Assembly: GCA_046048895.1 (NCBI GenBank)
Contig: JBJOFF010000002.1
Span: 56,668 to 120,667 of the forward strand
Origin: Actinomycetota bacterium
GTDB taxonomy: Bacteria > Actinomycetota > Actinomycetes > Nanopelagicales > Nanopelagicaceae
DNA: 64,000 nucleotides
Reading direction: 5' to 3'
The position numbers were made by a program, and so were the translations under genes. How positions within the stretch are numbered: position 1 is the first letter of the stretch; each line of letters begins with the position of its first letter. Under the pieces are notes generated by a model, which was not told the DNA's origin, did no database searches, and was given only the letters and a program-made list of their open reading frames with translations. Shown here piece by piece: positions 22,935 to 37,093 of this stretch.

Positions 22935-22963
22935 TTGACTACGGCCCCCCTTAGAGGCAGACT
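22935..22963 (+). promoter_or_regulatory. candidate sigma-70-type promoter of the isomerase-ABC-kinase-aldolase operon (TTGACT-N17-CAGACT)
   Basis: The hexamers were read from the sequence. The same -10-like AGACT plus downstream palindrome architecture recurs at 31215..31267. Confidence 0.4.
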
Positions 22964-22966
22964 GCG

Positions 22967-22986
22967 CCAAGAGGTCAAACCACTGG
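22967..22986. promoter_or_regulatory. palindromic operator copy 1 (CCAAGAGGTCAAACCACTGG), FadR/GntR-type GGT-N3-ACC core
   Basis: It lies 3 nt after the putative -10 and 8 nt before the ATG at 22994. It is near-identical to the sites at 31249..31267 and 31174..31192. Confidence 0.6.
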
Positions 22987-22993
22987 GGGTCTG

Positions 22994-24397
22994 ATGAAAT
23001 CTGTAGCGCTCTTGGCACTAGCTAGACCTACCTTTGACCTCGCTTATGCTGAGCGTAATTTTCAAGGCGCTCGCAAATTACTCCAAGATCTAGGTGTACA
23101 AGTGGTCGGACCAGAGCATCTAGTAATGACTCCGGAGGATGTACAAGCCGCCCAAATTCCAAGTGCAGATTTATATATTTTATTAACTGCATCTTTTAGC
23201 GATGCCTCGCCAGCGGTAGATCTGCTCTCAAATGTTCCAGGCCCAATTTTGGGTTGGTCTATGCGCGAACCTGGCGAAAACGGCGAGCGACTTAAATTAA
23301 ATTCAATGTGCGGCATAAATTTAGCAGCGCATGCACTTTTAGAAAATGGCCAGACACTTCGACATCTACACGGAAATTTTGATGAGCCAGAAATTAAGCA
23401 AGCGTTGTCGACGGCGCTTGCAGGTAATTTGCCTGCGGCAAATTCACCGATTGCTAAACATGATTTAGAAATGGCGTCAACTGAAGTTGTACAACATGCA
23501 CTTTCAATTTTGGCCAAGAAGAAAATTGGGGCAATTGGCGATGCGCCAAACGGTTTTACTCCTTGTAATTTTAATGCCCAGCAATTAAAAGATAATTTTG
23601 GATTAACTGTTGCTCAAATTCCAATTAAAAGTGCATTTGAGAAAATTGAGGCAGTAAGCCAAAGTGCAAAAGAAAAAGCACACGCAAATGCAGTCGCAGC
23701 TCAACCTTCGTTAGCCAATGTAAATGTTGATGAAGCAACCAAAGTAGCAGGTGTGGAAGTTGCATTAGAAAAATGGCAGGAAGATGAAGCGCTAGATGCG
23801 ATAGCAGTCAGATGCTGGCCAGAATTCCCTACCGATTTAGGAGCTTGCATCTGCTCATCTTTAGGTCGAATTTCAGATCGTGGCACAGTAACAACCTGCG
23901 AACGCGACGTACTTGGTGCGGTAACCATGTTGGTTTGTGAAGCGCTAGGTTCTGATGAAAATTACTTAGTAGATATTGTCGATCTTGATGCAAGTAAAAA
24001 TTTAGTTCGTTTATGGCACTGTGGCTCTGCCGCCACAAAATTAGCGGCAGATCCTCAAAATGCGACGCAATCGATTCATTGCAATCGGAAATTAGGCGTT
24101 GCCGGAGATTTCCCGCTCAAAACTGGTCCAGTAACCCTGTTCCGCATTGATCGGGATTTAGACCCAGCAAATAAAACTGGTCTAAGAATGGTTGTGAGCC
24201 GAGGGGAATCGATCCCAGCTCCCAATCGCTTTCAAGGAAATACTGCAACAGTTGTAACTGAACCTGATGCAGCACTTCTAGTGAATGGAATAGTCACCGG
24301 TGGATATCCGCACCATCTAGTCATCTCATGGGTAGATGTGCGACCAGGTATTCGTCGAATGGCGCAAATGTTAGGGATCCCCCTCATCGAATGGTAA
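22994..24397 (+). CDS. L-fucose/L-arabinose isomerase-family sugar isomerase (candidate sulfoquinovose-sulfofructose isomerase)
   Basis: A 467 aa protein that resembles the Fuc/Ara isomerase family overall (CWPEF, TTCERDVLGA, RLWHCGSA, GGYPHHLVISW). It is the first gene of the island operon. Confidence 0.65.
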   Translation: MKSVALLALARPTFDLAYAERNFQGARKLLQDLGVQVVGPEHLVMTPEDVQAAQIPSADLYILLTASFSDASPAVDLLSNVPGPILGWSMREPGENGERLKLNSMCGINLAAHALLENGQTLRHLHGNFDEPEIKQALSTALAGNLPAANSPIAKHDLEMASTEVVQHALSILAKKKIGAIGDAPNGFTPCNFNAQQLKDNFGLTVAQIPIKSAFEKIEAVSQSAKEKAHANAVAAQPSLANVNVDEATKVAGVEVALEKWQEDEALDAIAVRCWPEFPTDLGACICSSLGRISDRGTVTTCERDVLGAVTMLVCEALGSDENYLVDIVDLDASKNLVRLWHCGSAATKLAADPQNATQSIHCNRKLGVAGDFPLKTGPVTLFRIDRDLDPANKTGLRMVVSRGESIPAPNRFQGNTATVVTEPDAALLVNGIVTGGYPHHLVISWVDVRPGIRRMAQMLGIPLIEW

Positions 24398-24420
24398 CCA
24401 TCTCCAGAAAAGGAATATCA

Positions 24421-25851
24421 ATGAAGATAAAGACAATCCGTAAAGGCGTTGTTGCAGCGTTGGTAACAACGCTTGTGATGTCGTCATTTACATTAGCAAG
24501 AGCGGCTGAAGAGCCAGCACTTGGTAAGAAGTGCTCATCAGAGGGCATTAGTACAGGTACATCTACAAATTCACTTGTATGTACTCAAGTAGGAAATCAG
24601 CTGGTATGGAAGAGAGTCCGCCTTGGTGCGAACTACGGAACTCCAGTAGCTGCGCTTTCATCTCCAAAGGGAACAATTGAATTTCATCACTGGCGCCCAG
24701 AAGACAAAGCAGTATTTGCTGACATAATTGAAAAATTTGAAGCTACACATCCTGGTACCAAAATTAATCAGGTAATCATGAGCTCTGTTGATTACACCAA
24801 CTTAGCTTACGCAAAGATCAGCACCAATAAGAAAGCGGCAGTTTTTGTAACTAGCCGTGGTGGACAGTTTGATCAGTTCTATAAAGGCGGATTGCTAAAG
24901 GAATTTGTTGGACAGCGTTACATGAAGCAGAACGTAATTCAAAGCGCCCTTACACCAGCAACCGTTGGTGGAAAAGTTTATGGATTGCCATATCAATCAC
25001 TGTTTAACAATCCACTTTACAACGCTGAGATGTTCGCCAAGAATGGTTGGAAGGTTCCAACAACTTGGTCACAGACTCTTGCATTCTGCAAGACCGCAAA
25101 AGCAGCCGGAATTATTCCATTTGCATGGCCAGCAGCTACCCGAGGAAATGCGGGCCAGATTATCAATGCGTTCTTAATGAACTCAGATTCTTCATACGCT
25201 TCAATGGCAGCACATGTGGCTGCAGTTGATACCGGCAAGGAAGACCTTCAGACCGAGTGGTTCAAGTCAATTGCGAACAAGTACAAGCAAATGAATGACG
25301 CAGGTTGCTTCCCAGCAAATGTTTCTGGTTATAACGACACTGCAGCTCCGGCTGATTTCGCAGCTGGCAAAGCAGCTATCTATCCAACCGGATCATTCGG
25401 TATCAGCACTGTTACTAAATTGAATCCAGCAATGTCAGGAAAGATCAAAATGTTCGGAATGATCACAACTGACAGCAAGCCTCTATATGAAGGCATTACC
25501 AATAACACCTTCATTCTGCATGTAAATGCAAAGGCTTCAACCACAGATCAGAAGATTGCAAACTCATTTATCTCATGGCTAGCAACACCAGCTATGGCAC
25601 AGATTTATGCGGTTGGAACTTCACAGCATGTTTCAATCATTAACGTTGACTATTCGGACAATGTTGATCTTCTAAACGTTTCTGACATCATGGGTAAGAA
25701 GTTGTTACTTGCTCCACGCTTCTTGTTCGGCAATGTTAATGGCGTTCGTAATCCACTTGAGGACGCATTAATTGCGATTGGCGGTGGTGCAGACGTTTCA
25801 AAGACGTTAGCAGATACCTCAAAGACAATTAAGTCCAACTTGGGTGCTTAA
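24421..25851 (+). CDS. extracellular solute-binding protein, CUT1-type sugar ABC transporter
   Basis: The ATG at 24421 is preceded by AAAGGAA and gives a signal peptide MKIKTIRKGVVAALVTTLVMSSFTLARAA. The track start at 24328 overlaps the isomerase and was rejected. The body is SBP family 1-like (YPTGSFG etc.). Confidence 0.8.
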   Translation: MKIKTIRKGVVAALVTTLVMSSFTLARAAEEPALGKKCSSEGISTGTSTNSLVCTQVGNQLVWKRVRLGANYGTPVAALSSPKGTIEFHHWRPEDKAVFADIIEKFEATHPGTKINQVIMSSVDYTNLAYAKISTNKKAAVFVTSRGGQFDQFYKGGLLKEFVGQRYMKQNVIQSALTPATVGGKVYGLPYQSLFNNPLYNAEMFAKNGWKVPTTWSQTLAFCKTAKAAGIIPFAWPAATRGNAGQIINAFLMNSDSSYASMAAHVAAVDTGKEDLQTEWFKSIANKYKQMNDAGCFPANVSGYNDTAAPADFAAGKAAIYPTGSFGISTVTKLNPAMSGKIKMFGMITTDSKPLYEGITNNTFILHVNAKASTTDQKIANSFISWLATPAMAQIYAVGTSQHVSIINVDYSDNVDLLNVSDIMGKKLLLAPRFLFGNVNGVRNPLEDALIAIGGGADVSKTLADTSKTIKSNLGA

Positions 25852-25870
25852 TTAGCAATCTAACTAAGGC

Positions 25871-25908
25871 AAGCACCGCTCTTTCCAAATTTGGCAAGAG
25901 CGGTGCTT
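25871..25908 (+). promoter_or_regulatory. strong intercistronic hairpin after the SBP gene (13-bp perfect stem AAGCACCGCTCTT/AAGAGCGGTGCTT), no U-tract
   Basis: Read directly from the sequence. It lies 20 nt after the SBP stop and 48 nt before the permease ATG. Confidence 0.6.
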
Positions 25909-25955
25909 CGCCTACCCAAAAGAAGAAAAATCGAACAAACCCAACTTTAATTATT

Positions 25956-26801
25956 ATGTCGCTGCCAGCTTTGGCAGTTTATAGTTTTCTCTACCTCTAT
26001 CCGGCAATTCAAAATTTGCTTTACTCTCTAACTCGCTGGGATGGAGTTACTGAATCTGAATTTATTGGCGCGCGAAATTTCACCTACATGTTGACCGAAG
26101 ATGTACTTTTCAGAAAAATCTTTGCCAATAACATTAAATTTGCGCTATTTGTAGTCATCTTTCAGACCGGTTTTTCCTTACTTTTTGCGATTTTTCTAGC
26201 TAGAAATTCCAAATCAAATATCTTTTTCCGCACCTTATTTTTCTTCCCAACAATTCTCTCATCCGTTTCAGTTGGATTGATGTGGACCTTTTTATATAAC
26301 CCAAACTATGGATTCATAAATGCAGCCCTTAAAGGCATAGGTCTAGATTCTCTAGCTGTCAATTGGTTGGGCGATACCAGATATTCTTTATTAGCGATAG
26401 CGATCACTCAAGTCTGGTTTCATACCGGTCAGATGGTCGTCATATACGTAGCTGGGTTACAGCAAATCCCGCAGGAACTTTATGAAGCAGCAGATGTTGA
26501 TGGTGCAACCAAATGGCAGCAATTTAAAAATGTAACCTGGCCAATGGCGCTTCCTACAACTGCAGTCGTGGTCGCCTACACCACAATCCAATCCTTTAGA
26601 GCATTTGATTTGGTTTATTCAATGACTCAGGGTGGTCCTTTAAATTCATCAGACTTACTAGTGACAAATATTTTCAATTTGGCATTCGTAGGATATAAAT
26701 TTGGATATGCAGCAGCTCAGACTATTTTCCTCGTAGTAATGATTTTGTTATTGACGTGGCTCCAGCGCCGAACTCTTAAAATAGATTATGGAGTCAAGTA
26801 A
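25956..26801 (+). CDS. sugar ABC transporter permease (MalF/BPD_transp_1 type)
   Basis: A polytopic 281 aa protein with an EAA-loop region EAADVDGATKWQQFKNVTWP. Confidence 0.85.
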   Translation: MSLPALAVYSFLYLYPAIQNLLYSLTRWDGVTESEFIGARNFTYMLTEDVLFRKIFANNIKFALFVVIFQTGFSLLFAIFLARNSKSNIFFRTLFFFPTILSSVSVGLMWTFLYNPNYGFINAALKGIGLDSLAVNWLGDTRYSLLAIAITQVWFHTGQMVVIYVAGLQQIPQELYEAADVDGATKWQQFKNVTWPMALPTTAVVVAYTTIQSFRAFDLVYSMTQGGPLNSSDLLVTNIFNLAFVGYKFGYAAAQTIFLVVMILLLTWLQRRTLKIDYGVK

Positions 26802-27616
26802 TGATTTTTAGTATCTCCAGAAGAATTTTGCTGACAATATTTGCATTAGCGGTAATTGTGCCGACTTCAATCGTTGTTTTAGGCACATTCAAGACAGATT
26901 TTGAAATTTATTCAAAGCCTCTAGCTCTGCCAAAAGCTTTTACTTTGGATAATTTCAAGGCGTTGATAGACACTGGAAATGTTTCAACTCCTTTTAAAAA
27001 TTCAGTCATTGTGTCGTTGAGTTCGGTCTTCTTCACACTGTTATTTGCAAGTTTGGCTGCTTATGCAATTTCTAGAATGTTCACTATTACTGGAAAGGTC
27101 CTCTTCTTCTTGTTCTCCTTGGGATTAGCAATTCCAGGTCAAGTCAATATTGTGCCTATTTACACCCTATTTGTGAAGTTAAATTTGACCAATTCCTTAA
27201 TAGGACTTGTTTTAGTGAATATTGCTTTAAATTTACCGCTCTCCATTTTTATTCTCACTGCTTTCCTAAAGGATCTGCCAAAGGAGATGTTTGAAGTAGC
27301 AAGCATTGATGGTGCAGGTCATTGGCGAGTATTTCGCTCTATTGCCCTCCCTCTAGCAAGACCAGCTGTAGGCGCGACTGCTATATTTTTGTTTGTCATT
27401 TGTTGGAACGATCTCTTATATCCATTAATGCTGATAAATGAACAAAGCAAAAAAACTTTGCCACTTACCCTAATTGATTTCCGTGGAGAATTTTCTACCA
27501 GTTATTCAATGTTATTTACTGCAATTTTGGTAGCTTCAATACCAATGGTCGTTATGTATCTTTTGATGCAAAAGCAATTCCAATCAGGTTTGACAGCAGG
27601 TGCGGTTAAGGGATGA
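26801..27616 (+). CDS. sugar ABC transporter permease (MalG type)
   Basis: A polytopic 271 aa protein with the EAA loop EVASIDGAGHWRVFRSIALP. TAATG junction with the upstream permease. Confidence 0.85.
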   Translation: MIFSISRRILLTIFALAVIVPTSIVVLGTFKTDFEIYSKPLALPKAFTLDNFKALIDTGNVSTPFKNSVIVSLSSVFFTLLFASLAAYAISRMFTITGKVLFFLFSLGLAIPGQVNIVPIYTLFVKLNLTNSLIGLVLVNIALNLPLSIFILTAFLKDLPKEMFEVASIDGAGHWRVFRSIALPLARPAVGATAIFLFVICWNDLLYPLMLINEQSKKTLPLTLIDFRGEFSTSYSMLFTAILVASIPMVVMYLLMQKQFQSGLTAGAVKG

Positions 27617-28311
27617 GTACTACTATAAATTCAAGAGCAGATCGCATTGCCGATCAACTTCTCGAATTAATAAGTGTTTCTAAATTAAATCCAGGTGATC
27701 GATTACCTCCGGAACGTCAATTATCTGAACTTTTAGAGGTTAGCCGTCCTTCTTTGCGTGAAGCTTTACATATTCTTCAGGCAAGAGGATTGGTCGCAAT
27801 TAAACATGGACAGGGCACGTTTGTTGAAGAACCTTTGGTTGCTCAAGAATTAAGGGCTTCAGTCTTCTCAAGAGAGCATGATTTAAATGAACTTTATGAT
27901 GCCCGAGAAGTGCTTGAAGTGCCAGCCGCAAAGTGGGCTGCGCAGAAGGCTTCTAAAGAAGATATTAGAACTTTACGTGCAACTCTAAATCAGATGTCGG
28001 CTATTGCTGAGAGTAATGAAGTTGATTATGAGCAATTAAAATTTCTAGACGCTAAATTTCACTTAACAATCGTAGGGATAGCGGAAAATAGATTTATCAA
28101 TCAGACTTTGCACGTATTACAAGAGGTCATGGGTATGTCCATGGAAACTACACTTCGTCTACCAGGCCGTATTGAGATTTCAGCAAATGAGCATCTGGCA
28201 ATATTGGATGCTTTAGAACGTGGAGATGGAGAGCTGGCGGCGAAATTGACGCATGCTCATATTGCAGGTGCGCGTAAAACGGCACTAGCTGATGCGAAAG
28301 ATAAGCATTGA
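27613..28311 (+). CDS. GntR-family transcriptional regulator, FadR subfamily (FCD C-terminal domain)
   Basis: Winged-HTH block LPPERQLSELLEVSRPSLREALHILQARGLV followed by an all-helical C-terminal domain. ATGA overlap with the permease. Confidence 0.85.
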   Translation: MSTTINSRADRIADQLLELISVSKLNPGDRLPPERQLSELLEVSRPSLREALHILQARGLVAIKHGQGTFVEEPLVAQELRASVFSREHDLNELYDAREVLEVPAAKWAAQKASKEDIRTLRATLNQMSAIAESNEVDYEQLKFLDAKFHLTIVGIAENRFINQTLHVLQEVMGMSMETTLRLPGRIEISANEHLAILDALERGDGELAAKLTHAHIAGARKTALADAKDKH

Positions 28312-29195
28312 TTGAAGTAACTTGCGTAGGCGTAATTACGATGGACACGGTTGCGTTGGTGGATAAATATCCAAGCGCAGACGAAAGAGTATTAGCTGAG
28401 AAGATTGTTAGATCTGGAGGAGGTCCGGCTTCGGTAGCTGCAGTTGCGCTTTCAAGATTAGGAATTAAATCTGCAATTGTTGGAACTATCGGAGATGATC
28501 AAGATGGTCAAACCGTTTTAGAAATATTTAAAAAAGAAGGTGTAGATACTTCTGGTATCTCAATTCAAAAAGGTGCAACTTCTGGTAGCGTCATTGTGGC
28601 ATCCAAAAGCGAAAGCACCCGAGCAATTTCAACTCGCCAGCCAGTAAGCCAAGTAAAACCAAATGAAGCAGCCAAGAAATTGGCAGCTAACTCACAGTGG
28701 ATTCATGTCGACCATGTAGGAATCAATTTATTGCCTGACCTAGGAATCAGCAGGGGAGGCGCAGTAAAGATTTCTTTCGATGCTGGATATGGGGTAAAAG
28801 ATTTTGATGTTTCAAAGGTAGATTTATTTGCACCAAATGATAAGCAGATGCGAGAGCGCTATCCAGGTTTAGATTTAAAAGAGGCAATTAAGAGGGATGC
28901 TGAAGCTGGAAAAAATTTGGTGGTTGCCACGATGGGGGCAAATGGATCCATGGGTTACTCAACGGAGTTAGATTTTGCAGAAGCTCCAGTATTTAGAACG
29001 GAAATAATTAGCACCTTAGGCGCTGGAGATGTTTTTCATGGCGCGCTCCTTGCACAACTTATCGAAGGTCATCCACTTAAGGAAGCGTTAATGCGCGCTA
29101 ATGTAGTTGCAGCTCTCTCTTGCAGAGGCCTGGATGGCCAATCTGCGATTCCCACCAAAAATGACTTAATTAAGTACCTAGAAGGGGCTAAATAA
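28308..29195 (+). CDS. PfkB-family sugar kinase, YihV (sulfofructose kinase)-like
   Basis: VTCVGVITMD, GGGPASVAAVALSRLG and TLGAGDVFHGALLA...ALSCRGLDGQSAIP resemble my memory of E. coli YihV. TTGA overlap with the regulator gene. Confidence 0.7.
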   Translation: MIEVTCVGVITMDTVALVDKYPSADERVLAEKIVRSGGGPASVAAVALSRLGIKSAIVGTIGDDQDGQTVLEIFKKEGVDTSGISIQKGATSGSVIVASKSESTRAISTRQPVSQVKPNEAAKKLAANSQWIHVDHVGINLLPDLGISRGGAVKISFDAGYGVKDFDVSKVDLFAPNDKQMRERYPGLDLKEAIKRDAEAGKNLVVATMGANGSMGYSTELDFAEAPVFRTEIISTLGAGDVFHGALLAQLIEGHPLKEALMRANVVAALSCRGLDGQSAIPTKNDLIKYLEGAK

Positions 29196-30073
29196 TGCGT
29201 GATTTATCGAAACTGGCTCGATCATCTGGTGGTTTAGCAATGGTGGCAGTCGATCAACGCGAGGCGCTCCGAGGAATGTTTGCAGCGCATCATTCAACCG
29301 CAGTTCCAGATTCACAACTTACCCAATTCAAAGTTGATGTCGCGACAGAGTTAACGCCATTTGCATCAGCGCTACTAGTAGATCAAGAATTTGGAATTGA
29401 TGCCATTGTTGATCAGAAAGCAATGGCTAGCGGTTCAGGTTTGATCGCGGCAGCTGATTTATTAATTGGTCCAGCGGGCGGTGCAGCTACTGATACTGCG
29501 GTTGATCCGGAAGTAGATCCAGTGAGAATGAAATCAATCGGCGCAGCCGGGTTAAAGTTTTTAGTACTCTGGCGAAAAGATGAAAGCCCTGAATCAAGAT
29601 TGCAACTCGTAAATCAATTTAAGGCTTATTGTGACAGAGTTGATTTACCTTCAATTATTGAAATTATTGTAAAGGCTCCGAATAGTTCAGATATTCCTTT
29701 CGATAGAGAGGCGCAGATTATTGAGGCGGCTAAAGAAGCTCGCGCTTGGAAACCAGATCTCTACAAGGCCGAAGTACCTTTCCACGGTGAAGGAGATCTA
29801 AATCAGATTGAGAGAAATGCCGCGCTAATTTCTGAAGCTATCCAAGGTCCTTGGGTGGTACTTTCAAATGGAGTTAAGCAACCAAATTTTGCCGAAGCCG
29901 TGAAGGCGTGTTGCAAAGGTGGTGCTAGTGGTTTTCTTGCTGGGCGAGCGGTTTGGGCAGATATTGTTGGCGCAACAGATATTCCAAAAGCGCTTCGTGA
30001 AGTATCTATTCCTCGTCTAAAAGAGTTAACTGCAATTGTTGATGAATATGCCAAATCTTGGAGAAGTTGGTAG
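29195..30073 (+). CDS. class I aldolase of the LacD/YihT family, YihT (sulfofructose-1-phosphate aldolase)-like
   Basis: Blocks SGGLAMVAVDQREALRGMF, LKFLVLWRKDE, FDREAQIIEAAKEA, DLYKAEVP, PWVVLSNGV and GASGFLAGRAVWA closely match my recollection of YihT. LacD, as I recall it, has AFDQRGAL instead. TAATG junction with the kinase. Confidence 0.7.
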   Translation: MRDLSKLARSSGGLAMVAVDQREALRGMFAAHHSTAVPDSQLTQFKVDVATELTPFASALLVDQEFGIDAIVDQKAMASGSGLIAAADLLIGPAGGAATDTAVDPEVDPVRMKSIGAAGLKFLVLWRKDESPESRLQLVNQFKAYCDRVDLPSIIEIIVKAPNSSDIPFDREAQIIEAAKEARAWKPDLYKAEVPFHGEGDLNQIERNAALISEAIQGPWVVLSNGVKQPNFAEAVKACCKGGASGFLAGRAVWADIVGATDIPKALREVSIPRLKELTAIVDEYAKSWRSW

Positions 30074-31171
30074 TTAATTCATTTCAGCGATTGTTACAGG
30101 GCGACACTCTGCGATGCTCTTATGAGCAGCTAAGCCAGTAATTACGCTGGTTGCGCCATCTTTTAATGTTACTTCTGCAGGGGTTTTATTAAGTATTGCA
30201 TCCCGAAATTTAACGTGTTCGATGTATGAAGCACCGTAATGATGTCCTAGATATTTAACGGAAAGATCCATCACTTGCTTAACTTCACTGCCCCTGCCAG
30301 TTCCTTCACCTACGCCCCATCCAGAGCGTTTGCCCCAATCCTCTCTTCGGGAGTAGCGAACATTTAGCGAAGGCAAGAATGATTCCAGTTTTCCCTCATC
30401 GCCGACCACAGTGAGAATCTCTTTGTCATATGAACCTTCTGCAAACATACAGAGATCAAGCATTGCACGGATACCTCCGGCATATTCAAGAATTACATAT
30501 GCGTTATCCAACATATCTGCCTGTTGGCCATCATATTTCTCATCAAGATGGTTTACATTCTGACCGCCAGATGCAAAAACTCTGATTGGTTGGCTACCAA
30601 TAATTAAATCCATCAAATTAAAGTAATGACAGCATTTCTCTACCAGCGTGCCACCAGTTCGTTTTGCAAAGCGATTCCAATTGCCTACTTTTGGGTAGAA
30701 GGGTTCACGATGTTCGCGAATTGCAACTTGGTGCACTTTGCCAACAGCACCAGCTTTCGCCCGTTGAATTACTTCGTTAACTGGGGGCATAAAACGATAT
30801 TCAAGGCCCATCCATGTCAATGCACTTCTCTTTGATTCCCAATCAATAATTTTCTTGCAGTCTTCTACAGTGGTTGCCAAAGGCTTTTCTACGAAAACAG
30901 ATAAATTTGTAGCTAAGGCATCAGATAGAACGTCAACATGAGTGTCGTTAGGGGTTGCGATTACAACCGCATCAACCAAACCAGATTCTAAAAGTTGACG
31001 GTGATCTGTAAATTGCTTTGGGTTGCTGCCTGCCACGCTACTTGCCTGAGCGATGGAATTGGAATCAGGGTCTGCGATCGCAGTGATTGTGGCACCACCC
31101 ATAATCTTGATGTTTTCAATATGTTCGCGCCCCATGCTGCCTGCGCCGATAATTCCATAACGTAGGGTCAT
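30074..31171 (-). CDS. Gfo/Idh/MocA-family NAD(P)-dependent oxidoreductase (candidate NAD-dependent sulfoquinovosidase or sulfolactaldehyde-level dehydrogenase)
   Basis: Rossmann block YGIIGAGSMG, the EKPLA motif and GGTLVEKCCHYFNLMD. I prefer the ATG at 31171 (MTLRYGIIG) over the TTG at 31177 used by the track. Its stop directly abuts the aldolase stop. Confidence 0.75.
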   Translation of the reverse strand: MTLRYGIIGAGSMGREHIENIKIMGGATITAIADPDSNSIAQASSVAGSNPKQFTDHRQLLESGLVDAVVIATPNDTHVDVLSDALATNLSVFVEKPLATTVEDCKKIIDWESKRSALTWMGLEYRFMPPVNEVIQRAKAGAVGKVHQVAIREHREPFYPKVGNWNRFAKRTGGTLVEKCCHYFNLMDLIIGSQPIRVFASGGQNVNHLDEKYDGQQADMLDNAYVILEYAGGIRAMLDLCMFAEGSYDKEILTVVGDEGKLESFLPSLNVRYSRREDWGKRSGWGVGEGTGRGSEVKQVMDLSVKYLGHHYGASYIEHVKFRDAILNKTPAEVTLKDGATSVITGLAAHKSIAECRPVTIAEMN

Positions 31172-31173
31172 GG

Positions 31174-31192
31174 CCAAAGGTTAGACCACTTG
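31174..31192. promoter_or_regulatory. operator copy 2 (CCAAAGGTTAGACCACTTG)
   Basis: 16/19 identical to copy 3. It lies at the translation start of the minus-strand oxidoreductase gene. Confidence 0.5.
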
Positions 31193-31214
31193 CTAAATAA
31201 ATGGGAGAGAAGTC

Positions 31215-31244
31215 TTGAAATTAGGCGCAAGTTCCATTTAGACT
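31215..31244 (+). promoter_or_regulatory. candidate promoter of the suyAB-like operon (TTGAAA-N18-TAGACT)
   Basis: The hexamers were read from the sequence, and the operator follows 4 nt downstream. Confidence 0.45.
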
Positions 31245-31248
31245 GCGG

Positions 31249-31267
31249 CCAGAGGTCAGACCACTGG
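31249..31267. promoter_or_regulatory. operator copy 3 (CCAGAGGTCAGACCACTGG), 19-bp near-perfect palindrome
   Basis: The reverse complement is CCAGTGGTCTGACCTCTGG, so 16/19 positions are self-complementary. The conserved 28-nt block AGACTGCGsCCA(A)GAGGTCArACCACTGG is shared with 22959..22986. Confidence 0.65.
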
Positions 31268-31298
31268 ACCGAATTCTTATGAAAAGCGAGGAGCTCAT

Positions 31299-31598
31299 AT
31301 GGCTACACCTCCACAGTTCTTGCTCCATCACGATGGCGATAACGTCGCTGTTGCAATGGACGATTTAGAACCTGGAACCTTGCATGGTCTCTCAGTTAAA
31401 GAGGGCACTGCATATACTGAAATTCTTAACCATGCGATTCCGTTGGGACATAAATTTGCATTGACAGATATCCCTGAAGGCGGAGCAATTATCAAGTATG
31501 GAATCAAAGTTGGCCTTGCGTCGGCTGCAATTAAAAAAGGCGATTACATTCACACACACAACATGAGGAGTTATCGATGGGAAGCAAGCCGCGCTTAA
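31299..31598 (+). CDS. SAF-domain small subunit of a split UxaA-type lyase/dehydratase, SuyA-like
   Basis: A 99 aa protein with SAF/UxaA-N blocks GHKFALTDIPEGGAIIKYG and GDYIHTHNM. The SD GAGGAG lies 5 nt upstream. Confidence 0.7.
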   Translation: MATPPQFLLHHDGDNVAVAMDDLEPGTLHGLSVKEGTAYTEILNHAIPLGHKFALTDIPEGGAIIKYGIKVGLASAAIKKGDYIHTHNMRSYRWEASRA

Positions 31599-32743
31599 TG
31601 GGATACCGCCGACCAAACGGCACTATCGGTATCCGCAATCACGTAGTTATTTTGCCGCTTGATGATCTATCAAATGCGGCAGCTGAGGCTGTATCAAAAG
31701 TTATTCCAGGAACTCTTGCTTTGCCACATGCCTTTGGCAGATTGCAATTTGGTCAAGATTTAGAGTTGACTTTCAAAACTCTGATTGGCACTGGCATGAA
31801 TGCAAATGTTGCTGCTGTTATCGTTATTGGTATTGAACCAAAATGGACTAATCGTGTAGCAGAAGGTATTGCCAAATCTGGAAAGCCAGTTGCCGCTTTT
31901 TCAATTGAGGGCAAGGGTGATTTACAAACAATCACCGAAGCATCTCGTATGGCTGCAATGTTCTTGCAAGATGCATCAGGTCTTGAGCGTGAACAAGCCG
32001 AAATTGGTGAAATGATTATGTCTATCAAGTGTGGAGAATCAGATACCACCTCTGGACTTGGTTCATGCCCAACAACTTCAGAAGCTGTAGATCGCTGGGT
32101 AGAAGCTGGTGGCACTGTTTTCTTTGGTGAAACTTCCGAGTTAACCGGTGGAGAGCATTTAATTGCAGATCGCTGTATTGATGATGCATGTCGAATCGCA
32201 TTTCAAAATACTTACGATAAGTACATTGAAGTTATCGAATCTACCGGAGCAAATCTGCTTGGTTCGCAGCCTACCCAAGGCAATATCGCTGGTGGCTTGA
32301 CTACCATTGAGGAGAAAGCGCTAGGAAACATCGCTAAGACAGGCTCTGTTCCAGTTGTGGGCGTTTTGGATTATGCAGAGCAGCCAGACCCGAATAAAAA
32401 AGGTCTTTACTTCATGAACTCATCTTCAGCCGCCGCCGAGTGTGTAACTCTGATGGCAGCTGGCGGAGCGGTGATTCACTTGTTCCCGACCGGACAAGGC
32501 AACGTAATCGGTAATCCAATTGTTCCGGTACTTAAGTTGACAGCAAATAAAAAGACTGCAGCTAGCATGAAAGAACATATCGATTTAGATGTTTCTGGTT
32601 TACTTCGTTATGAATACGATCTTAAAAAAGCGGGCGACATGATGATGGATGTAATTTACAAAACTGTAAATGGTCGTCTTTGTGCAGCAGAAGTTACAGG
32701 TCACCGCGAATTTACTTTCACAAAGCTTTATATCAGCGCGTGA
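31577..32743 (+). CDS. UxaA C-terminal-type large subunit, SuyB-like (candidate (R)-sulfolactate sulfo-lyase)
   Basis: A 388 aa protein with blocks GIRNHVVILP, KCGESDTTSGL, GETSELTGGEH, GGLTTIEEKALGN and HLFPTGQGN. An internal GAGGAG SD precedes the ATG, and it overlaps the small subunit gene by 22 nt. Confidence 0.7.
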   Translation: MGSKPRLMGYRRPNGTIGIRNHVVILPLDDLSNAAAEAVSKVIPGTLALPHAFGRLQFGQDLELTFKTLIGTGMNANVAAVIVIGIEPKWTNRVAEGIAKSGKPVAAFSIEGKGDLQTITEASRMAAMFLQDASGLEREQAEIGEMIMSIKCGESDTTSGLGSCPTTSEAVDRWVEAGGTVFFGETSELTGGEHLIADRCIDDACRIAFQNTYDKYIEVIESTGANLLGSQPTQGNIAGGLTTIEEKALGNIAKTGSVPVVGVLDYAEQPDPNKKGLYFMNSSSAAAECVTLMAAGGAVIHLFPTGQGNVIGNPIVPVLKLTANKKTAASMKEHIDLDVSGLLRYEYDLKKAGDMMMDVIYKTVNGRLCAAEVTGHREFTFTKLYISA

Positions 32744-33666
32744 TTTTAATTTCCGAAGATGTTTGGGGTGCGCCGTTTGAAGAGTTATCTAAACGGCGCT
32801 CCATTCATCAAGATACAGACCTTTGGCAAGATGCAAGTAAATTAAAAGAGTCCGTCAAAGAAGCTCAAGTTTTAGTAGTTAGAAATAGAACCAAAGTAAC
32901 TGCTGATGTAATCGCAGCTGCACCAAAGTTAAAGGTTATTGCTCGCGCAGGAGTAGGTCTAGATAATATAGATCTTGAAGCTGCGGATAGCGCTGGCGTG
33001 ATAGTAGTTGCGGGTTTAGGTGCAAACGCAATTTCAGTGGCTGAGATGACTTTGGGATTAGCTTTGGCTTTGAGCAGAGATATCGCAGCTCAAGATCAAA
33101 TCACAAAGTCTGGCAATTGGAATAGAACACCTGGTGTAGAAATCACCGGGAAGACTTGGGGTTTACTGGGATGTGGTGCAACCGGACGGGCTACTGCAAA
33201 CCTACTTAAAGGATTTAACTGTAAGGTGCTGGGTTTTGACCCCTTTTTTCAGGGAAATGCAGAAATTCAAATGGGTACTTGGGATGAAGTTGTTAGCAAA
33301 TCAGATTTTATCAGCGTTCATATGCCTGCAACTAGCCAAACCATCGGATCAATTAATCAAGAGTTCTTTACCAAAATGAAGTCAACTGCATTTTTGATAA
33401 ATGTGGGAAGAGGTGAGTTGGTAAACGAGGCTGATTTAATTGAAGCGCTTAAAGCAAAAACTATAGCTGGTGCAGCACTAGATGTAAGAACAACTGAGCC
33501 GCCTTTAAAAGGAGAATTAGAGCAAATTCAAAATTTGATTTTGACTCCGCATATTGCAGGCATCACCAAAGAATCACAATTAGCAATTAATCAAATATTG
33601 GTCAATAACATCGATTTGGTTTTAGATGGTAAAAAAGCAACTCATGCGGTTGGTAAAGTCTCGTGA
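32740..33666 (+). CDS. D-isomer-specific 2-hydroxyacid dehydrogenase (phosphoglycerate dehydrogenase-like)
   Basis: I place the start at GTG 32740 (GTGA overlap with the upstream stop), giving [10 protein letters not shown]. The track start at 32680 lies inside the upstream gene. NAD motif [11 protein letters not shown] and catalytic-region block TPHIAG. Confidence 0.8.
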
Positions 33667-34664
33667 CAAAATTAAAATTTGAAACAGCAGTTTTACAAGC
33701 TTCTGATTTACTGCAAGCTGCCGGAATGCCTAAAGAAGAAGCTGACATTTCGGCAAATTGCATTGTGGCTAGCGATGTTTGGGGAATCGGAAGCCACGGA
33801 CTAATGCGCTTGCCCTTTTATTTAGAAAGACTCGTAGCTGGCGGCATTAATCCAAAGGCAAAATTAAAAGAGATTACTAATCTGCCATCGTTACGAATTT
33901 TTGATGGCGAAACCGGAATGGGCCATTGGCAATTAAAAAAGGCTGCAGAAGTTGCAGCTAATTTAGCGGATTCGCAAGGGATTGCAGCAGTTGGCGTTGG
34001 TCGATCAAATCACTGTGGCGCATTGGGACTATATGTATGGCCGATGTTGCAAAAGAATTTGGTAGGCATCGTTTTCAGTAATGGGCCTGCGGTGATGCCA
34101 CCTTGGGGTGGAAATAAACCAATGCTCTCAACTTCACCAATTGCAGCAGGCATTCCTGGGAAAAATCACACGGTTATTGATTTAGCTACTAGCGCAGTAG
34201 CGCGTGGAAAAATCGCCGCTAAAGCGCAGAAAGGTGAAGCTTTAGAACCTGGCTGGGCCTTTGATCAAAATGGTCTACCAACTTTAGATGCCAAAAGCGC
34301 ATTAAATGGAATGCTTGCACCACTTGGTGGAGTTAAAGGTTACGCACTAGCGGTTTTAGTTGAGTCATTAACTGGTGCATTAGTTGGACCAAATTTGGCA
34401 GCCGATGTTCCGGATATGTTTGATAATAATATGGCTAAGTTGCCGCAAGATATTTCGCATTTTGTGATTGCAATTAAAGCTGAAGCTCTAACTGTAGATG
34501 GCCATAACCGTATGGAAGAATTTTCAACGAGGGTAGATGAAGCCGGCGGTCGAATGCCAGGGAAAAATCGAGTGAATCCATTCGAAATATCAGCAGGCAC
34601 AGAATTTGATATTGCAGACTCAGTCTCTGCAGAACTTTCCAATTGGAGTTCAAAATTATTATAA
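33663..34664 (+). CDS. Ldh_2 (malate/L-lactate/ComC sulfolactate dehydrogenase) family oxidoreductase
   Basis: Blocks GIGSHGLMRLP, RSNHCGALG, LSTSPIAAGIP, DLATSAVARGKI and GGVKGYALA. GTGA junction with the upstream gene. Confidence 0.8.
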   Translation: MTKLKFETAVLQASDLLQAAGMPKEEADISANCIVASDVWGIGSHGLMRLPFYLERLVAGGINPKAKLKEITNLPSLRIFDGETGMGHWQLKKAAEVAANLADSQGIAAVGVGRSNHCGALGLYVWPMLQKNLVGIVFSNGPAVMPPWGGNKPMLSTSPIAAGIPGKNHTVIDLATSAVARGKIAAKAQKGEALEPGWAFDQNGLPTLDAKSALNGMLAPLGGVKGYALAVLVESLTGALVGPNLAADVPDMFDNNMAKLPQDISHFVIAIKAEALTVDGHNRMEEFSTRVDEAGGRMPGKNRVNPFEISAGTEFDIADSVSAELSNWSSKLL

Positions 34665-35650
34665 CCAGAAATTTTCCTGGGCTAGCGCTGATTGCTGGCT
34701 TTGTTGCAATTGCATTTCAAGTAAATAGCTATCAACCTGCCGTAAGTCCATTAGCTCTCTGTGTTTTATTTGGATTCCTGGCATCAAACTTAGCAAGTTG
34801 GCCTAATTGGGCTGAGTCTGGAACAAAACTTGCAAGTAAACGAATAATGCGAATCGGCGTTGCATTGCTTGGTTTTCAACTTAGTGTTGAAGCTCTCCAG
34901 CAGATTGGCTTAAAAGGAGTTTTGACGGTACTTGCAGTAGTTATCTTTACCATTTTTGGAATTTTGTTTCTCTCCAAATTATTTGGCATGACTGGTGATT
35001 TAGGTTTACTAATCGGAGTTGGTTTCGGAGTCTGTGGTGCAACTGCAGTAGCGGCGATTCGGCCACAAACAAAGGCAACACAAGAAGAAACTTCTTATGC
35101 CATCGCATTGATTTCGCTTTGTGGCACTTTATCTATTGTGGTGCTCCCATTAATTGGGCACGTACTCAATCTATCGACACAAACTTTTGGCGCATGGGCT
35201 GGCGCTGCCGTGCATGATGTGGGTCAAGTTATTGCTACTGCATCCGTATGGGATCAAGATGCAATTGCTGCAGCGATTGTGGTCAAGTTAGCGCGAGTAA
35301 GCATGCTAGCCCCAATAGTTTTAATACTTTCAATTAGACATAGAAAGTATTTAAGAAGTATCAATAAAAGCGAAGAAAAAAGTGAAAAAGTTCCATTAAT
35401 TCCATTTTTTGTAATTGGTTTTATTGCAGTAGCTGTCTTTCACAATACGGTTGATATACCAACAGGTACAACGGCAAATTTTGTTTTGTTATCCAAATGG
35501 TTGCTTGGTGCGGGCTTAGTAGCCCTTGGTGCAAATGTTAAATGGAATAACATTAAAAAAATTGGCGCTAAACCAATGTTAATGGGAATGCTCGCATGGC
35601 TAATTGTTGCTGGTGTAGCACTCTTTGCAGTTAACTTAACTGGGATTTAG
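34643..35650 (+). CDS. YeiH/UPF0324 putative sulfate/sulfite exporter (PSE) family membrane protein, SuyZ-like
   Basis: A polytopic 335 aa protein with blocks GVGFGVCGATAVAA and AVHDVGQV. It overlaps the upstream gene by 22 nt (TTG start). Confidence 0.7.
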   Translation: MEFKIIITRNFPGLALIAGFVAIAFQVNSYQPAVSPLALCVLFGFLASNLASWPNWAESGTKLASKRIMRIGVALLGFQLSVEALQQIGLKGVLTVLAVVIFTIFGILFLSKLFGMTGDLGLLIGVGFGVCGATAVAAIRPQTKATQEETSYAIALISLCGTLSIVVLPLIGHVLNLSTQTFGAWAGAAVHDVGQVIATASVWDQDAIAAAIVVKLARVSMLAPIVLILSIRHRKYLRSINKSEEKSEKVPLIPFFVIGFIAVAVFHNTVDIPTGTTANFVLLSKWLLGAGLVALGANVKWNNIKKIGAKPMLMGMLAWLIVAGVALFAVNLTGI

Positions 35651-36515
35651 TCTGCTTAACCAAGTCAGTTGCAAGCGCAAATAACGCAACCCAAATAATT
35701 AAGAATCCAACCCAACGCGCAGCTGGCATAGCTTCATGGTTAATCCAGACTCCAATTGAAAATTGCAGAGTTGGAGTTATGTATTGCAAGAGACCCAATG
35801 TGGAATATGGAAGGCGAGTAGCTGCGCCATTGAAGAGTAATAAAGGAATCGCGGTGACCGCTCCAGCTGCAGTTAAAAGCAGCGTCAAACTCAGCGAGGA
35901 TCCTCCCCATTGACCTTGACCTTTGCTACCTAAGTAGAAGAGAAATCCAGCGTAAGGAATAAATGAGATCAACGTTTCGATGGTTAGCCCTTCGAGCGCC
36001 CCTAGATTTAAGCGCTTTTTAATCAACCCGTAAGAGCCCCAAGAAGTGGCAAGTACCAAAGCAATCCATGGCAATCTGCCGTAATCGTAAGTGAGGACCA
36101 ATACGCCAATTGCACCCATACCAACTGCGAGCCACTGCAATTTACGAAGTTTCTCTTTCAGGAGAATTACGCCAAAAGCAATGATAAATAAGGGGTTTAT
36201 GTAATACCCAAGGGCTGCTTCGACTACATGTCCATTGTTGGTTGCCCAGATGTAAACCAACCAATTGATAGAAATTAACGCAGATGCGATTGTTAATCGA
36301 ATGAAAACTCTTTTAGTGAACATCAGTGAAAACATATTTCGCAGCTGTTTTTGAAATGCTAAAACTAAGATACAGAAAATTGATGTCCAAGCTGCGCGAT
36401 GCGAAACGATTTCTTGGGGTGAGGCAGGTTCTAGTAGTGGCCAGTAAAGTGGGAAGAGCCCCCACAGCACATGAGCTGAGACTCCAAAAGTTAATCCAAG
36501 TTTGTATTTATTCAA
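35631..36515 (-). CDS. rarD: EamA/DMT-family permease RarD
   Basis: 10-TM layout with the RarD-type N-terminus GVSAHVLWGLFPLYWPLL...EIVSHRAAW. Confidence 0.75.
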   Translation of the reverse strand: MNKYKLGLTFGVSAHVLWGLFPLYWPLLEPASPQEIVSHRAAWTSIFCILVLAFQKQLRNMFSLMFTKRVFIRLTIASALISINWLVYIWATNNGHVVEAALGYYINPLFIIAFGVILLKEKLRKLQWLAVGMGAIGVLVLTYDYGRLPWIALVLATSWGSYGLIKKRLNLGALEGLTIETLISFIPYAGFLFYLGSKGQGQWGGSSLSLTLLLTAAGAVTAIPLLLFNGAATRLPYSTLGLLQYITPTLQFSIGVWINHEAMPAARWVGFLIIWVALFALATDLVKQTKSQLS

Positions 36516-36521
36516 TTTAAA

Positions 36522-37010
36522 CTATCTGTAGTTTACAAATTGGACAGCAAAATCAAGAGAAGCATTTTTTACGAGCGCAATAACCTCTTGCAAGTCATCT
36601 CGAGATTTACTGGATACGCGAAGTTCGTCTCCTTGAATCTGAGTCTTAACTGCTTTGGGTCCTTCATCTTTAATTAGCTTCGCAACTTTTTTGGCATTCT
36701 CTGTGGAGATACCCTCTTTGAGCGGGCAATTAATCTTGGTTAATTTTCCAGATTGCTGTGGCTCAGAAGGATCTAAGTGTTTCAGTGAAACATTACGCTT
36801 AATCATCTTCTCTTTGAGTACTTCAAGGGCTGCCTTGGCGCGTTCTTCGGTTTCGGATTCAATCTTGATAACATCGCCAGCCATCTCTAACTTGGTGCCG
36901 GTACCTTTAAAATCAAAGCGCGTATCCAGCTCGCGAGCAGCTTGGTTGACCGCATTATCTAACTCTGCGCGATCAATCTTTGAAACGATATCGAAACTAC
37001 TATCAGCCAT
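36522..37010 (-). CDS. yajQ: YajQ-family nucleotide-binding protein (UPF0234)
   Basis: A 162 aa protein with [36 protein letters not shown] and a C-terminal FVNYR. Confidence 0.85.
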
Positions 37011-37036
37011 AATGGTTAAGGTAACAACCTTTCAAC

Positions 37037-37072
37037 TAAAAGAGAAACCCGCCTCACGTATGAGACGGGTTT
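37037..37072 (-). terminator. candidate intrinsic terminator of the zinc-ribbon gene
   Basis: On the minus strand, AAACCCGTCTCA-TACG-TGAGGCGGGTTT (12-bp stem, one mismatch) is followed by CTCTTTTAGTT. Confidence 0.55.
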
Positions 37073-37093
37073 AACTACTTATTGCTTAACTAG

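Follow-up and report, generated by a model that had tools for sequence, protein, structure and literature searches.

Sulfoquinovose (SQ) is produced on a gigatonne scale. Which freshwater taxa degrade it, and by which pathways, is largely unresolved, and the known isolates are probably terrestrial (2026 review, PMC13436972). In Escherichia coli and Salmonella, the genes yihO-V and csqR encode the Embden-Meyerhof-Parnas type of sulfoglycolysis (sulfo-EMP), which takes SQ to dihydroxyacetone phosphate (DHAP) and sulfolactaldehyde (SLA). We analyzed a 64,000-nucleotide stretch of DNA (the window; contig JBJOFF010000002.1 of assembly GCA_046048895.1, forward-strand positions 56,668 to 120,667) from a member of the Nanopelagicaceae, the actinobacterial acI lineage that is the most abundant freshwater bacterioplankton. 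Thirteen genes of the window probably form a two-operon regulon for the catabolism of SQ or sulfoquinovosyl glycerol (SQ-glycerol) by sulfo-EMP enzymes followed by the sulfolactate sulfo-lyase SuyAB, with one oxidation supplied from outside the cluster.

The acI cluster would share with E. coli and Salmonella the chemistry from SQ to DHAP and SLA, and it encodes a homologous aldolase and a PfkB-family kinase. However, its predicted isomerase is FucI-like (SqvD/SftI) rather than YihS, its predicted sulfoquinovosidase belongs to GH188 (SqgA) rather than GH31 (YihQ), its importer is an ATP-binding cassette (ABC) system rather than a major facilitator superfamily (MFS) carrier, and its regulator is of the GntR/FadR rather than the DeoR type. 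Unlike those clusters, it has no mutarotase or SLA reductase gene, and the C3 sulfonate is apparently not excreted but desulfonated. The modified sulfo-EMP pathway of Arthrobacter (PMC8873060, PMC10755693) is alike in its actinobacterial host, YihT-type aldolase, PfkB kinase, ABC importer, SqgA, and oxidative fate through sulfolactate, but it uses a YihS-type isomerase and an SLA dehydrogenase (GabD), lacks SuyAB, SlcC, and ComC, and releases sulfolactate by excretion. Hybrid sulfo-EMP1/2 clusters of Proteobacteria and Actinobacteria (PMC10665668, PMC9594981) mix an SqvD-type isomerase with other sulfo-EMP enzymes, as in acI. In the hybrids published so far, the last enzyme is an SLA reductase or dehydrogenase, and none has been described with SuyAB/SlcC/ComC or in the Nanopelagicaceae.

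The desulfonation half has relatives of its own. SuyAB/SlcC/ComC clusters of Paracoccus pantotrophus and P. versutus, Chromohalobacter salexigens, and Rhodococcus plasmids combine suyA-suyB with a PSE/YeiH exporter, a GntR regulator, and translationally coupled slcC-comC genes, as acI does, and the Rhodococcus cluster has its regulator (45% identity) and operator type in common with acI. These clusters import external C3 sulfonates via tripartite tricarboxylate transporter (TTT), ABC, or MFS systems, and Rhodococcus adds an aldehyde dehydrogenase (ALDH) and an oxidoreductase like 3-hydroxyisobutyrate dehydrogenase; in place of importer, ALDH, and oxidoreductase, acI has a sulfoglycolytic operon. 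On one Rhodococcus koreensis plasmid (NZ_CP070611, 4660-13029; locus L084), a FadR/GntR gene stands divergent from suyA-suyB-ALDH-MFS-NAD(P) oxidoreductase-hydroxyacid dehydrogenase-Ldh family. From its gene content, this looks like a complete operon for the degradation of dihydroxypropanesulfonate/sulfolactate and an ancestor-like comparator.

Sugar cleavage and desulfonation within one organism, as proposed here, were described for the transaldolase (sulfo-TAL) plus SuyAB clusters of Thermotogae and Chloroflexi (PMC9594981) and for sulfofucose Entner-Doudoroff (ED) plus SuyAB in Paracoccus wurundjeri, in which the presence of both tiers in a single bacterium was termed "unusual" in 2025 (PMC12421959). 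P. wurundjeri has the same suyA-suyB-slcC-comC gene order as the window and, as in the acI cluster, no GabD/SlaB homolog. However, the front ends there are of the transaldolase or ED type, whereas acI has a kinase and a class I aldolase; the phyla differ, the P. wurundjeri substrate is sulfofucose, and no evidence of a shared operator or regulon was reported for those clusters. The statement in an initial annotation of the window that its combination of pathways had not been described was overstated, given the published sulfo-TAL/SuyAB (PMC9594981), tandem sulfosugar/SuyAB (PMC12421959), and actinobacterial hybrid sulfo-EMP (PMC10665668) systems. The searchable literature yielded neither a report of SuyAB/SlcC/ComC joined to a sulfo-EMP-type front end under a single operator nor a paper tying SQ or sulfolactate to acI, Nanopelagicales, or Planktophila. 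Each module is known; what is new is this combination and its occurrence in acI.

Predicted conversion of sulfoquinovose to sulfolactaldehyde

In the proposed pathway, a CUT1 ABC system would import SQ or SQ-glycerol, from which an SqgA-type NAD+-dependent sulfoquinovosidase would release free SQ. An SqvD/SftI-type isomerase would then yield sulfofructose, a PfkB kinase would yield sulfofructose-1-phosphate, and a YihT-type class I aldolase would cleave the latter to DHAP and (S)-SLA. After SLA has been oxidized to (S)-sulfolactate by an enzyme that is not encoded in the cluster, SlcC-like and ComC-like dehydrogenases would invert (S)- to (R)-sulfolactate via sulfopyruvate, SuyAB would cleave (R)-sulfolactate to pyruvate and sulfite, and a SuyZ-like YeiH protein would export the sulfur. 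A FadR-type GntR repressor would act on palindromic operators just downstream of both promoters until a carboxylate of the pathway, plausibly sulfolactate, releases it. We infer the enzyme activities, which way the flux runs, what the effector is, that the regulator represses and does not activate, and the nature of the SLA-oxidizing step.

The window proteins were compared with 80 related loci by tblastn. Aldolase relatives at 73 to 90% identity occur in at least 80 GTDB species, nearly all of them "Candidatus Planktophila," Nanopelagicaceae, or "uncultured actinobacterium" freshwater metagenome-assembled genomes (MAGs), and their carriers include the complete genomes IMCC19121 (acI-A7) and IMCC26103 (acI-A4), which were published in 2017 as the first complete acI genomes. 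These relatives place the window (GC content, ~44%) in the acI group, in agreement with the initial view of a streamlined actinobacterial genome; its nearest relatives are two MAGs (L002 and L003). Four MAG loci labeled "Bifidobacterium breve," "uncultured Clavibacter sp.," or "Streptomycetaceae bacterium" (L044, L061, L067, and L079) carry acI-type clusters ~74% identical to the window, and their names look mislabeled.

The strongest single sign that the substrate would be SQ is the minus-strand gene between the two operons, which would also supply a glycosidase for SQ-glycerol. The initial annotation correctly placed this gene in the Gfo/Idh/MocA oxidoreductase family and left its role unexplained; judged by its sequence, it is an SqgA-type sulfoquinovosidase. 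The protein matched FlSqgA (8qc2; 48.2% identity) with an E-value of 1.3e-108 and ArSqgA (8qc3) with an E-value of 5.4e-106, and the next family followed at 8e-29 (here and below, structure-based family margins are E-values or bits against PDB sequences). The GH188 family of NAD+-dependent sulfoquinovosidases was founded on FlSqgA and ArSqgA, and the contacts of ArSqgA with SQ have been listed (PMC10755693). ArSqgA residues Lys107, Tyr136, Arg166, Lys172, Glu189, His193, and His321 are identical in the window protein at a constant offset of 9, so that the sulfonate pair Arg166 and Lys172 is conserved, as are the catalytic contacts Lys107, Tyr136, Glu189, His193, and His321. Leu170, which contacts the sulfonate via its backbone, is replaced by Tyr.

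The aldolase is predicted to be of the YihT type and not LacD-like. It is 44.6% identical to EcYihT and matched YihT structures with an E-value of 1.6e-70 and 241 bits (7ag1), versus 1e-19 and at most 74 bits for LacD. The pocket of sulfofructose-phosphate aldolases contains Lys193, Arg253, Ser226, Ser227, and Ala26 (PMC8006165). Ala26, Lys193 (the Schiff base residue), Ser226, and Arg253 (SeYihT numbering) are kept in the window aldolase and in 80 of 80 orthologs, and Ser227 is replaced by Asn in all acI orthologs. The aldolase peptides quoted in the initial annotation were all found in the translation. Its proposal that kinase and aldolase are closer to YihV and YihT than to LacC and LacD held for the aldolase, on both bit scores and key residues, and only marginally for the kinase.

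The best PDB match of the PfkB-family kinase was E. coli YihV (6.6e-25, 91 bits), by a small margin over fructokinase and ribokinase (83 bits for a fructokinase and 81 bits for a sugar kinase). Relative to the sulfonate triad of YihV, Lys27 is replaced by Arg, Asn109 is aligned with an Asn that most orthologs keep, and the position of Arg138 is deleted; whether or not it is replaced functionally, there is a conserved STRQP insertion that might do so. The catalytic GAGD motif (YihV Asp244) is kept in 77 of 77 orthologs. The protein is a candidate sulfofructose kinase, the weakest of our calls and one drawn mostly from context.

The sole NCBIfam match of the candidate isomerase was the SftI sulfoquinovose isomerase model NF048012, over the full length and with an E-value of 7e-82. 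By this match, it is a homolog of the SftI family and not a certified equivalog. Its Pfam match to Fucose_iso_C was marginal, and no sequence relative was found in the PDB. The best plasmid-borne isomerase relative (31% identity) is on a "Ca. Chlorohelix allophototropha" plasmid (NZ_CP128401; L085), where its neighbors are a PPi-phosphofructokinase-like gene, an ABC sugar transporter, a Gfo/Idh/MocA oxidoreductase, a succinate-semialdehyde-type ALDH, a phosphoglycerate-dehydrogenase-like gene, a "threonine synthase," a nitrite/sulfite reductase, and siroheme synthesis genes. These plasmid genes may form a sulfosugar cluster coupled to sulfite assimilation.

The importer is a CUT1 system whose ATPase gene is not in the cluster; shared MsiK-type ATPases are usual for CUT1 systems in Actinobacteria. 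The solute-binding protein (SBP) gene most likely starts at the ATG at 24421 rather than at 24328. It is followed by a stable hairpin; the RNA fold of 25860-25920 has an energy of -34 kcal/mol (z = -8.8 versus shuffles). The hairpin is probably an intra-operon mRNA stabilizer, raising the SBP over the permeases, or an attenuator. Identity to the window SBP was 47 to 55% in one set of loci, 61 to 80% in most others, and ~91% in L002 and L003, and in three loci the permease matches reached just 28 to 32%, apparently from a different transporter. This divergence may reflect different ligands, e.g., SQ versus SQ-glycerol.

Predicted conversion of sulfolactate to pyruvate and sulfite

Operon 2 begins with the two predicted subunits of SuyAB. 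SuyB is 72.7% identical to a plasmid-encoded protein of Rhodococcus jostii RHA1 and 54.8% identical to the P. versutus large subunit, the locus of which consists of a GntR gene, suyA-suyB, and a "putative sulfate exporter." Its identity to other UxaA-family proteins is at most 38%, and its identity to annotated altronate and galactarate dehydratases is at most 31%. Close SuyB homologs carry the Joint Genome Institute annotation (2R)-sulfolactate sulfo-lyase beta, and SuyA is 33% identical to P. versutus SuyA. A GarD/UxaA identity for SuyB was ruled out at 29 to 31% identity and 128 bits, against a 730-bit NCBIfam cut-off; the GarD structure match was just 1e-28. Pairwise identities thus put SuyB among suyB-context proteins and apart from altronate and galactarate dehydratases, and the initial annotation was right to recognize in the SAF/UxaA-C pair and the PSE exporter the suyA-suyB-suyZ layout of Paracoccus.

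The two dehydrogenases that follow would supply the racemization. Sulfoglycolysis yields the (S) series, and SuyAB takes (R)-sulfolactate (PMC13436972, PMC12421959); because the predicted product is (S) and SuyAB is (R) specific, a two-dehydrogenase SlcC/ComC racemase is precisely what coupling needs. Characterized SlcC proteins contain PF00389 and PF02826, characterized ComC proteins contain PF02615, and the P. wurundjeri genes are ordered suyA-suyB-slcC-comC (PMC12421959 supplement); the window has the same domains in the same order. The assignment of the Ldh_2 protein to the ComC family, made initially, was supported, and the D-2-hydroxyacid dehydrogenase is its candidate SlcC-like partner. 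L-sulfolactate dehydrogenase (NF040650) was the top NCBIfam match of the Ldh_2 protein, which matched the Methanocaldococcus jannaschii ComC structure at 2.4e-46 and is 51% identical to an R. koreensis gene product and 33% identical to that of the P. versutus ComC-position gene. The hydroxyacid dehydrogenase is 52% identical to the R. koreensis cluster member and 38% identical (192 bits, full length) to the product of the P. versutus SlcC-position gene, versus 35% (135 bits, partial) for E. coli SerA. A housekeeping SerA is less likely, as the gene is operon coupled, its product has no ACT domain, and it is closer to SlcC-position genes. Its start is most likely the GTG at 32740 and not the TTG at 32680, because the N terminus MILISE then matches MIVITE of a Paracoccus homolog.

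The last gene of the operon encodes a predicted exporter of the YeiH family of putative sulfate exporters (TIGR00698, 198.7 bits), with 28% full-length identity to P. versutus SuyZ. According to the most recent acI genomics paper, which discusses just ssuABC and thiosulfate uptake, Nanopelagicales are without complete assimilatory sulfate reduction; export of the sulfite would therefore be likelier than its assimilation, in keeping with the exporter gene. Genes downstream of the cluster are housekeeping genes, among which no sulfite oxidase or reductase was seen.

Cluster conservation and a shared operator

Translation of the open reading frames (ORFs) from 22994 to 35650 confirmed the initial description of thirteen tightly packed genes in its order, strands, and compact junctions. 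The junctions are TAATG between the two permease genes and between kinase and aldolase, ATGA between permease 2 and GntR, TTGA between GntR and kinase, and GTGA on both sides of the hydroxyacid dehydrogenase gene (from SuyB and to Ldh_2). SuyA/SuyB and Ldh_2/YeiH overlap by 22 nucleotides (nt), and the convergent SqgA gene abuts the aldolase stop codon with zero gap. Pfam and NCBIfam also bore out the family assigned to each gene, namely, Fucose_iso_C-like, SBP_bac_1, BPD_transp_1 (twice), GntR+FCD, PfkB, DeoC/LacD, Gfo/Idh/MocA, SAF, GD_AH large subunit, 2-Hacid_dh, Ldh_2, and Cons_hypoth698/YeiH.

The upstream half, in the order hyp352-isomerase-SBP-permease-permease-GntR-kinase, is present in 36 of the 38 loci with sufficient upstream sequence. 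SqgA-SuyA-SuyB-2HADH-Ldh_2-YeiH (2HADH, the hydroxyacid dehydrogenase) is carried by 38 of the 45 loci with sufficient downstream sequence, including IMCC19121 and IMCC26103; it directly follows the aldolase in the same order in 34 of these and follows one inserted gene in 4. The cluster is a real arrangement and not a product of chance. Its sulfoglycolytic and desulfonation halves are usually linked but separable, because seven loci carry the first half alone.

Both operon spacers contain a near-perfect palindrome, AGAGGTCA(A/G)ACCACTGG, after a -35/-10-like pair of hexamers; position 22935, where the initial annotation began the cluster, is the first base of the -35-like hexamer of operon 1. 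Sites of this operator type occur only three times in the window (4 overlapping matches; 0.15 expected by chance). All 44 of the regions compared upstream of the isomerase gene, and all 56 upstream of suyA, contain the core AGAGGTCnnACCACT within spacers that have otherwise diverged, and 152 of 154 motif hits in ~1 Mb of loci lie at these two promoter regions. A TTGAC box stands at the same distance in nearly all of the 44 isomerase upstream regions, the flanks of which have diverged, and most orthologous loci keep the TAGACT of the operon 2 promoter-like element. In most of them, AGGTTAGACCACT recurs where the SqgA gene starts. The promoter and operator functions of these elements are predicted from such patterns.

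The regulator is an ortholog of the one in actinobacterial suyAB clusters; aligned over the full length, it shares 45% identity with the FadR/GntR protein encoded divergently from suyAB on the R. koreensis plasmid. The suyR-suyA spacer of that plasmid carries the same operator type (TTGGTAAGACCACTT and AGAGGTAAGACCTCTT). This shared regulator and operator suggest that the pair was inherited from a C3-sulfonate cluster and then extended to the sulfoglycolytic operon. The nearest named NCBIfam families of the regulator are NanR, LldR, and PdhR, all of which sense carboxylates, so that a pathway carboxylate, sulfolactate, is a plausible effector. The phylogenetically conserved operator thus supports the proposal, made in the initial annotation, that one regulator controls both operons. 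The coordinates of all features are collected in Table 1.

Table 1. Features of the predicted SQ catabolic cluster (window positions)
Feature	Positions	Strand	Details
Operon 1 promoter-like element	22935..22963	+	TTGACT 22935-22940, 17-nt spacer, CAGACT 22958-22963
Operator-like palindrome AGAGGTCAAACCACTGG	22970..22986	+	7 nt upstream of isomerase start codon
SQ isomerase candidate (SqvD/SftI type, FucI-like)	22994..24397	+	NCBIfam NF048012
CUT1 solute-binding protein	24421..25851	+	SBP_bac_1; signal-peptide-like N terminus
Stable hairpin between SBP and permease 1 genes	25871..25908	+	13-bp perfect arms, no T-run
ABC permease 1 (UgpA/MalF type)	25956..26801	+	NCBIfam and Pfam BPD_transp_1
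ABC permease 2 (UgpE/MalG type)	26801..27616	+	NCBIfam and Pfam BPD_transp_1
FadR-subfamily GntR regulator	27613..28311	+	GntR+FCD domains
PfkB-family kinase, candidate sulfofructose 1-kinase	28308..29195	+	PF00294
Class I sulfofructose-1-phosphate aldolase (YihT type), predicted	29195..30073	+	PF01791
SqgA-type (GH188) NAD+-dependent sulfoquinovosidase, predicted	30074..31177	-	PDB 8qc2, 8qc3
Second operator-like site AAAGGTTAGACCACTTG	31176..31192	+	At SqgA gene start; weaker copy
Operon 2 promoter-like element	31215..31244	+	TTGAAA, 18 nt, TAGACT; consensus scan
Operator-like palindrome AGAGGTCAGACCACTGG	31251..31267	+	Upstream of suyA
SuyA, sulfolactate sulfo-lyase small subunit, predicted	31299..31598	+	SAF domain, 99 aa
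SuyB, sulfolactate sulfo-lyase large subunit, predicted	31577..32743	+	GD_AH_second and GD_AH_C (PF04295+PF20629), 388 aa
SlcC-like (S)-sulfolactate dehydrogenase candidate	32740..33666	+	PF00389+PF02826
ComC-like (R)-sulfolactate dehydrogenase candidate (Ldh_2 family)	33663..34664	+	PF02615
SuyZ-like YeiH/PSE-family exporter (sulfite or sulfate), predicted	34643..35650	+	TIGR00698, PF03601

Several features surround the cluster or vary among its relatives. The loci with the first half alone retain the operator (L015, L019, L028, L044, L049, L061, and L073). In L049, the neighbors are a GH88 gene, a gene for a 953-amino-acid (aa) protein that Pfam does not match, genes for an ABC transporter, KduI, and KduD, and a glucuronoyl-esterase-like gene. 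One additional operator-like site, AGGTTAGACCACT, occurs in L073 at 18018 (-). It lies in a spacer that separates a gene the size of an ABC binding-protein gene from the plus-strand gene after it, and the layout there resembles the neighboring cluster of L049. In L008, L025, L065 (IMCC19121, 10871-11740, minus strand), and L074, a gene of the IU-nucleoside hydrolase family (PF01156, E 1.5e-50) lies between aldolase and SqgA, co-oriented with SqgA.

Just upstream of the isomerase promoter, hyp352 (21838-22896, plus strand, 352 aa), which adjoins the cluster in 36 of 38 loci, is degenerate and M24/prolidase-like, with most metal ligands apparently replaced; neither Pfam nor NCBIfam matched it, and the closest PDB entry was 1wy2 (1e-4). 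The genes beyond it vary (nuo/polyprenyl synthase in the window, RarD/DUF520 in L078, and an ABC ATPase in L049). Downstream of the cluster, at window positions 35631-39804, RarD is encoded on the minus strand, with a 20-nt overlap with the end of YeiH, and is followed by DUF520, a GroEL-type chaperonin, and DUF3027. Because RarD and DUF520 are upstream of hyp352 in L078 instead of downstream of the cluster, the whole unit including hyp352 is placed differently relative to these genes among acI lineages. Scans for tRNA genes and Rfam families found nothing near the cluster.

The missing oxidation, rival readings, and significance

The claim of a complete pathway from SQ to pyruvate and sulfite was not borne out, in that neither the window nor, within 10 kb of the aldolase, the 80 loci have a gene whose product would oxidize SLA to sulfolactate. 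We searched a six-frame translation of the window and all ORFs of the 80 loci with PROSITE-type ALDH signatures and found none in the 64-kb window or within 10 kb of the aldolase in these loci. The simplest reading is that a housekeeping ALDH encoded elsewhere in the genome carries out this step; an ALDH-independent oxidation is less likely. As candidates for the missing enzyme, we rejected hyp352, which is prolidase-like and lies upstream of the promoter and operator, and the genes inserted in some loci, which encode an IU-nucleoside hydrolase, an ADP-ribosylglycohydrolase, and a second PfkB kinase. P. wurundjeri has the same "missing step": sulfolactate was still detected, and the candidate enzyme that was tested was inactive (PMC12421959).

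This gap weighs against a sulfo-EMP and SuyAB regulon in acI, and it is joined by several other observations. The homologous Rhodococcus cluster does encode an ALDH, between suyB and the racemase genes, and the Arthrobacter sulfo-EMP clusters encode GabD. The isomerase (275 bits) is far below the NCBIfam equivalog cut-off of 700 bits for SftI (NF048012), and the ComC-like protein (203 bits) is below that of 500 bits for L-sulfolactate dehydrogenase (NF040650). The kinase is just 29 to 31% identical to YihV, with no aligned counterpart for one residue of the Lys27-Asn109-Arg138 triad, and among 33 PDB matches of the SBP, none was named a sulfoquinovosyl-glycerol-binding protein (best, 4g68 at 3.5e-20). 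In seven of the 45 loci, the sulfoglycolytic half is present but has no SqgA, SuyAB, SlcC, ComC, or YeiH in its vicinity. There is also an environmental observation to consider, for which we take Sporichthyaceae to be the SILVA family that holds the hgcI/acI clade. In 13C-SQ stable-isotope probing of fresh and estuarine waters, acI was not reported among the labeled taxa; "Sporichthyaceae" exceeded 10% in the microcosms after SQ at one estuarine station and was not among the labeled amplicon sequence variants (PMC13372026). The microcosm result speaks neither for nor against SQ use by acI.

Given these caveats, we considered whether the two halves might be juxtaposed and not channeled, with the first excreting a C3 sulfonate, as in Arthrobacter and E. 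coli, and the second serving other imported sulfonates (sulfolactate, sulfopyruvate, or cysteate-derived compounds). The lack of an SLA dehydrogenase gene to join the modules, the loci with module 1 alone, and the stand-alone C3-sulfonate clusters that are the closest relatives of module 2 (Rhodococcus and Paracoccus) would all fit. However, module 2 lacks an importer of the kind that all the stand-alone relatives we examined possess (MFS in Rhodococcus; TTT and ABC in Paracoccus), and module 1 has no SLA reductase or C3-sulfonate exporter. The modules have one operator type in common, the sole regulator gene is within module 1, and the SqgA gene is divergent from suyA across a common operator-bearing spacer, all of which makes unchanneled halves quite unlikely. 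A substrate other than SQ, which might be another 6-sulfo/6-deoxy hexose (such as sulfofucose via sulfotagatose), a hexose, or a hexuronate with the SAF/UxaA pair as a sugar-acid dehydratase, we regard as very unlikely. Subfamily models for tagatose-bisphosphate aldolase do also match the aldolase (144 bits), the likeness of the kinase to YihV is not a confident one, the PDB matches of the SBP do not indicate its ligand, some of the module-1-only loci adjoin a GH88/KduI/KduD uronate cluster, and the sulfofucose locus of P. wurundjeri carries PF00294/PF01791 genes. Yet the YihT-specific residues are kept at a 167-bit margin over LacD, and the SqgA homolog retains the residues that bind the C4-OH and 6-sulfonate of SQ. 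SuyB is 55 to 73% identical to suyB-context proteins and at most 31% identical to altronate and galactarate dehydratases, and a ComC/SlcC pair with a YeiH exporter makes sense for a sulfonate only.

The pathway might instead be complete as encoded, with a cluster dehydrogenase moonlighting or with glyceraldehyde-3-phosphate dehydrogenase and phosphoglycerate kinase taking SLA as a mimic of glyceraldehyde-3-phosphate. An ALDH gene was consistently not found in the 80 loci, the same gap in P. wurundjeri is accompanied by sulfolactate accumulation and an inactive candidate, and SlcC is a phosphoglycerate dehydrogenase homolog that acts on a mimic of 3-phosphoglycerate. We nevertheless consider this unlikely, as nothing in the sequences points to such an activity, the homologous Rhodococcus cluster uses an ALDH, and a housekeeping ALDH elsewhere is a simpler explanation. 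A broader form, in which acI/Planktophila are single-cell complete SQ mineralizers without a classical SLA dehydrogenase and a new or moonlighting glycolytic or cluster enzyme oxidizes SLA, is possible if doubtful. If it were true, the freshwater SQ cycle would be closed without the two-tier cross-feeding of current models, and the missing step of P. wurundjeri would be solved too.

We therefore return to the sulfo-EMP and SuyAB regulon with an external oxidation as the probable reading. A 2026 survey defined a sulfoglycolytic cluster by an SLA reductase or dehydrogenase within ten ORFs; this criterion would miss the acI cluster, which may explain why it was overlooked. Axenic Planktophila cultures exist (PMC12817590). 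The finding sharpens the question of how SLA is oxidized without a GabD/SlaB gene, and this missing dehydrogenase is its secondary, biochemical interest. The main interest is ecological, with a dominant freshwater lineage as a one-cell SQ mineralizer. If the reading is true, more than 38 species-level genomes in the most abundant freshwater lineage carry a full regulon reaching from import to desulfonation, a streamlined oligotroph could use all six carbons of SQ, and sulfite or sulfate would be returned to the water without a second organism.

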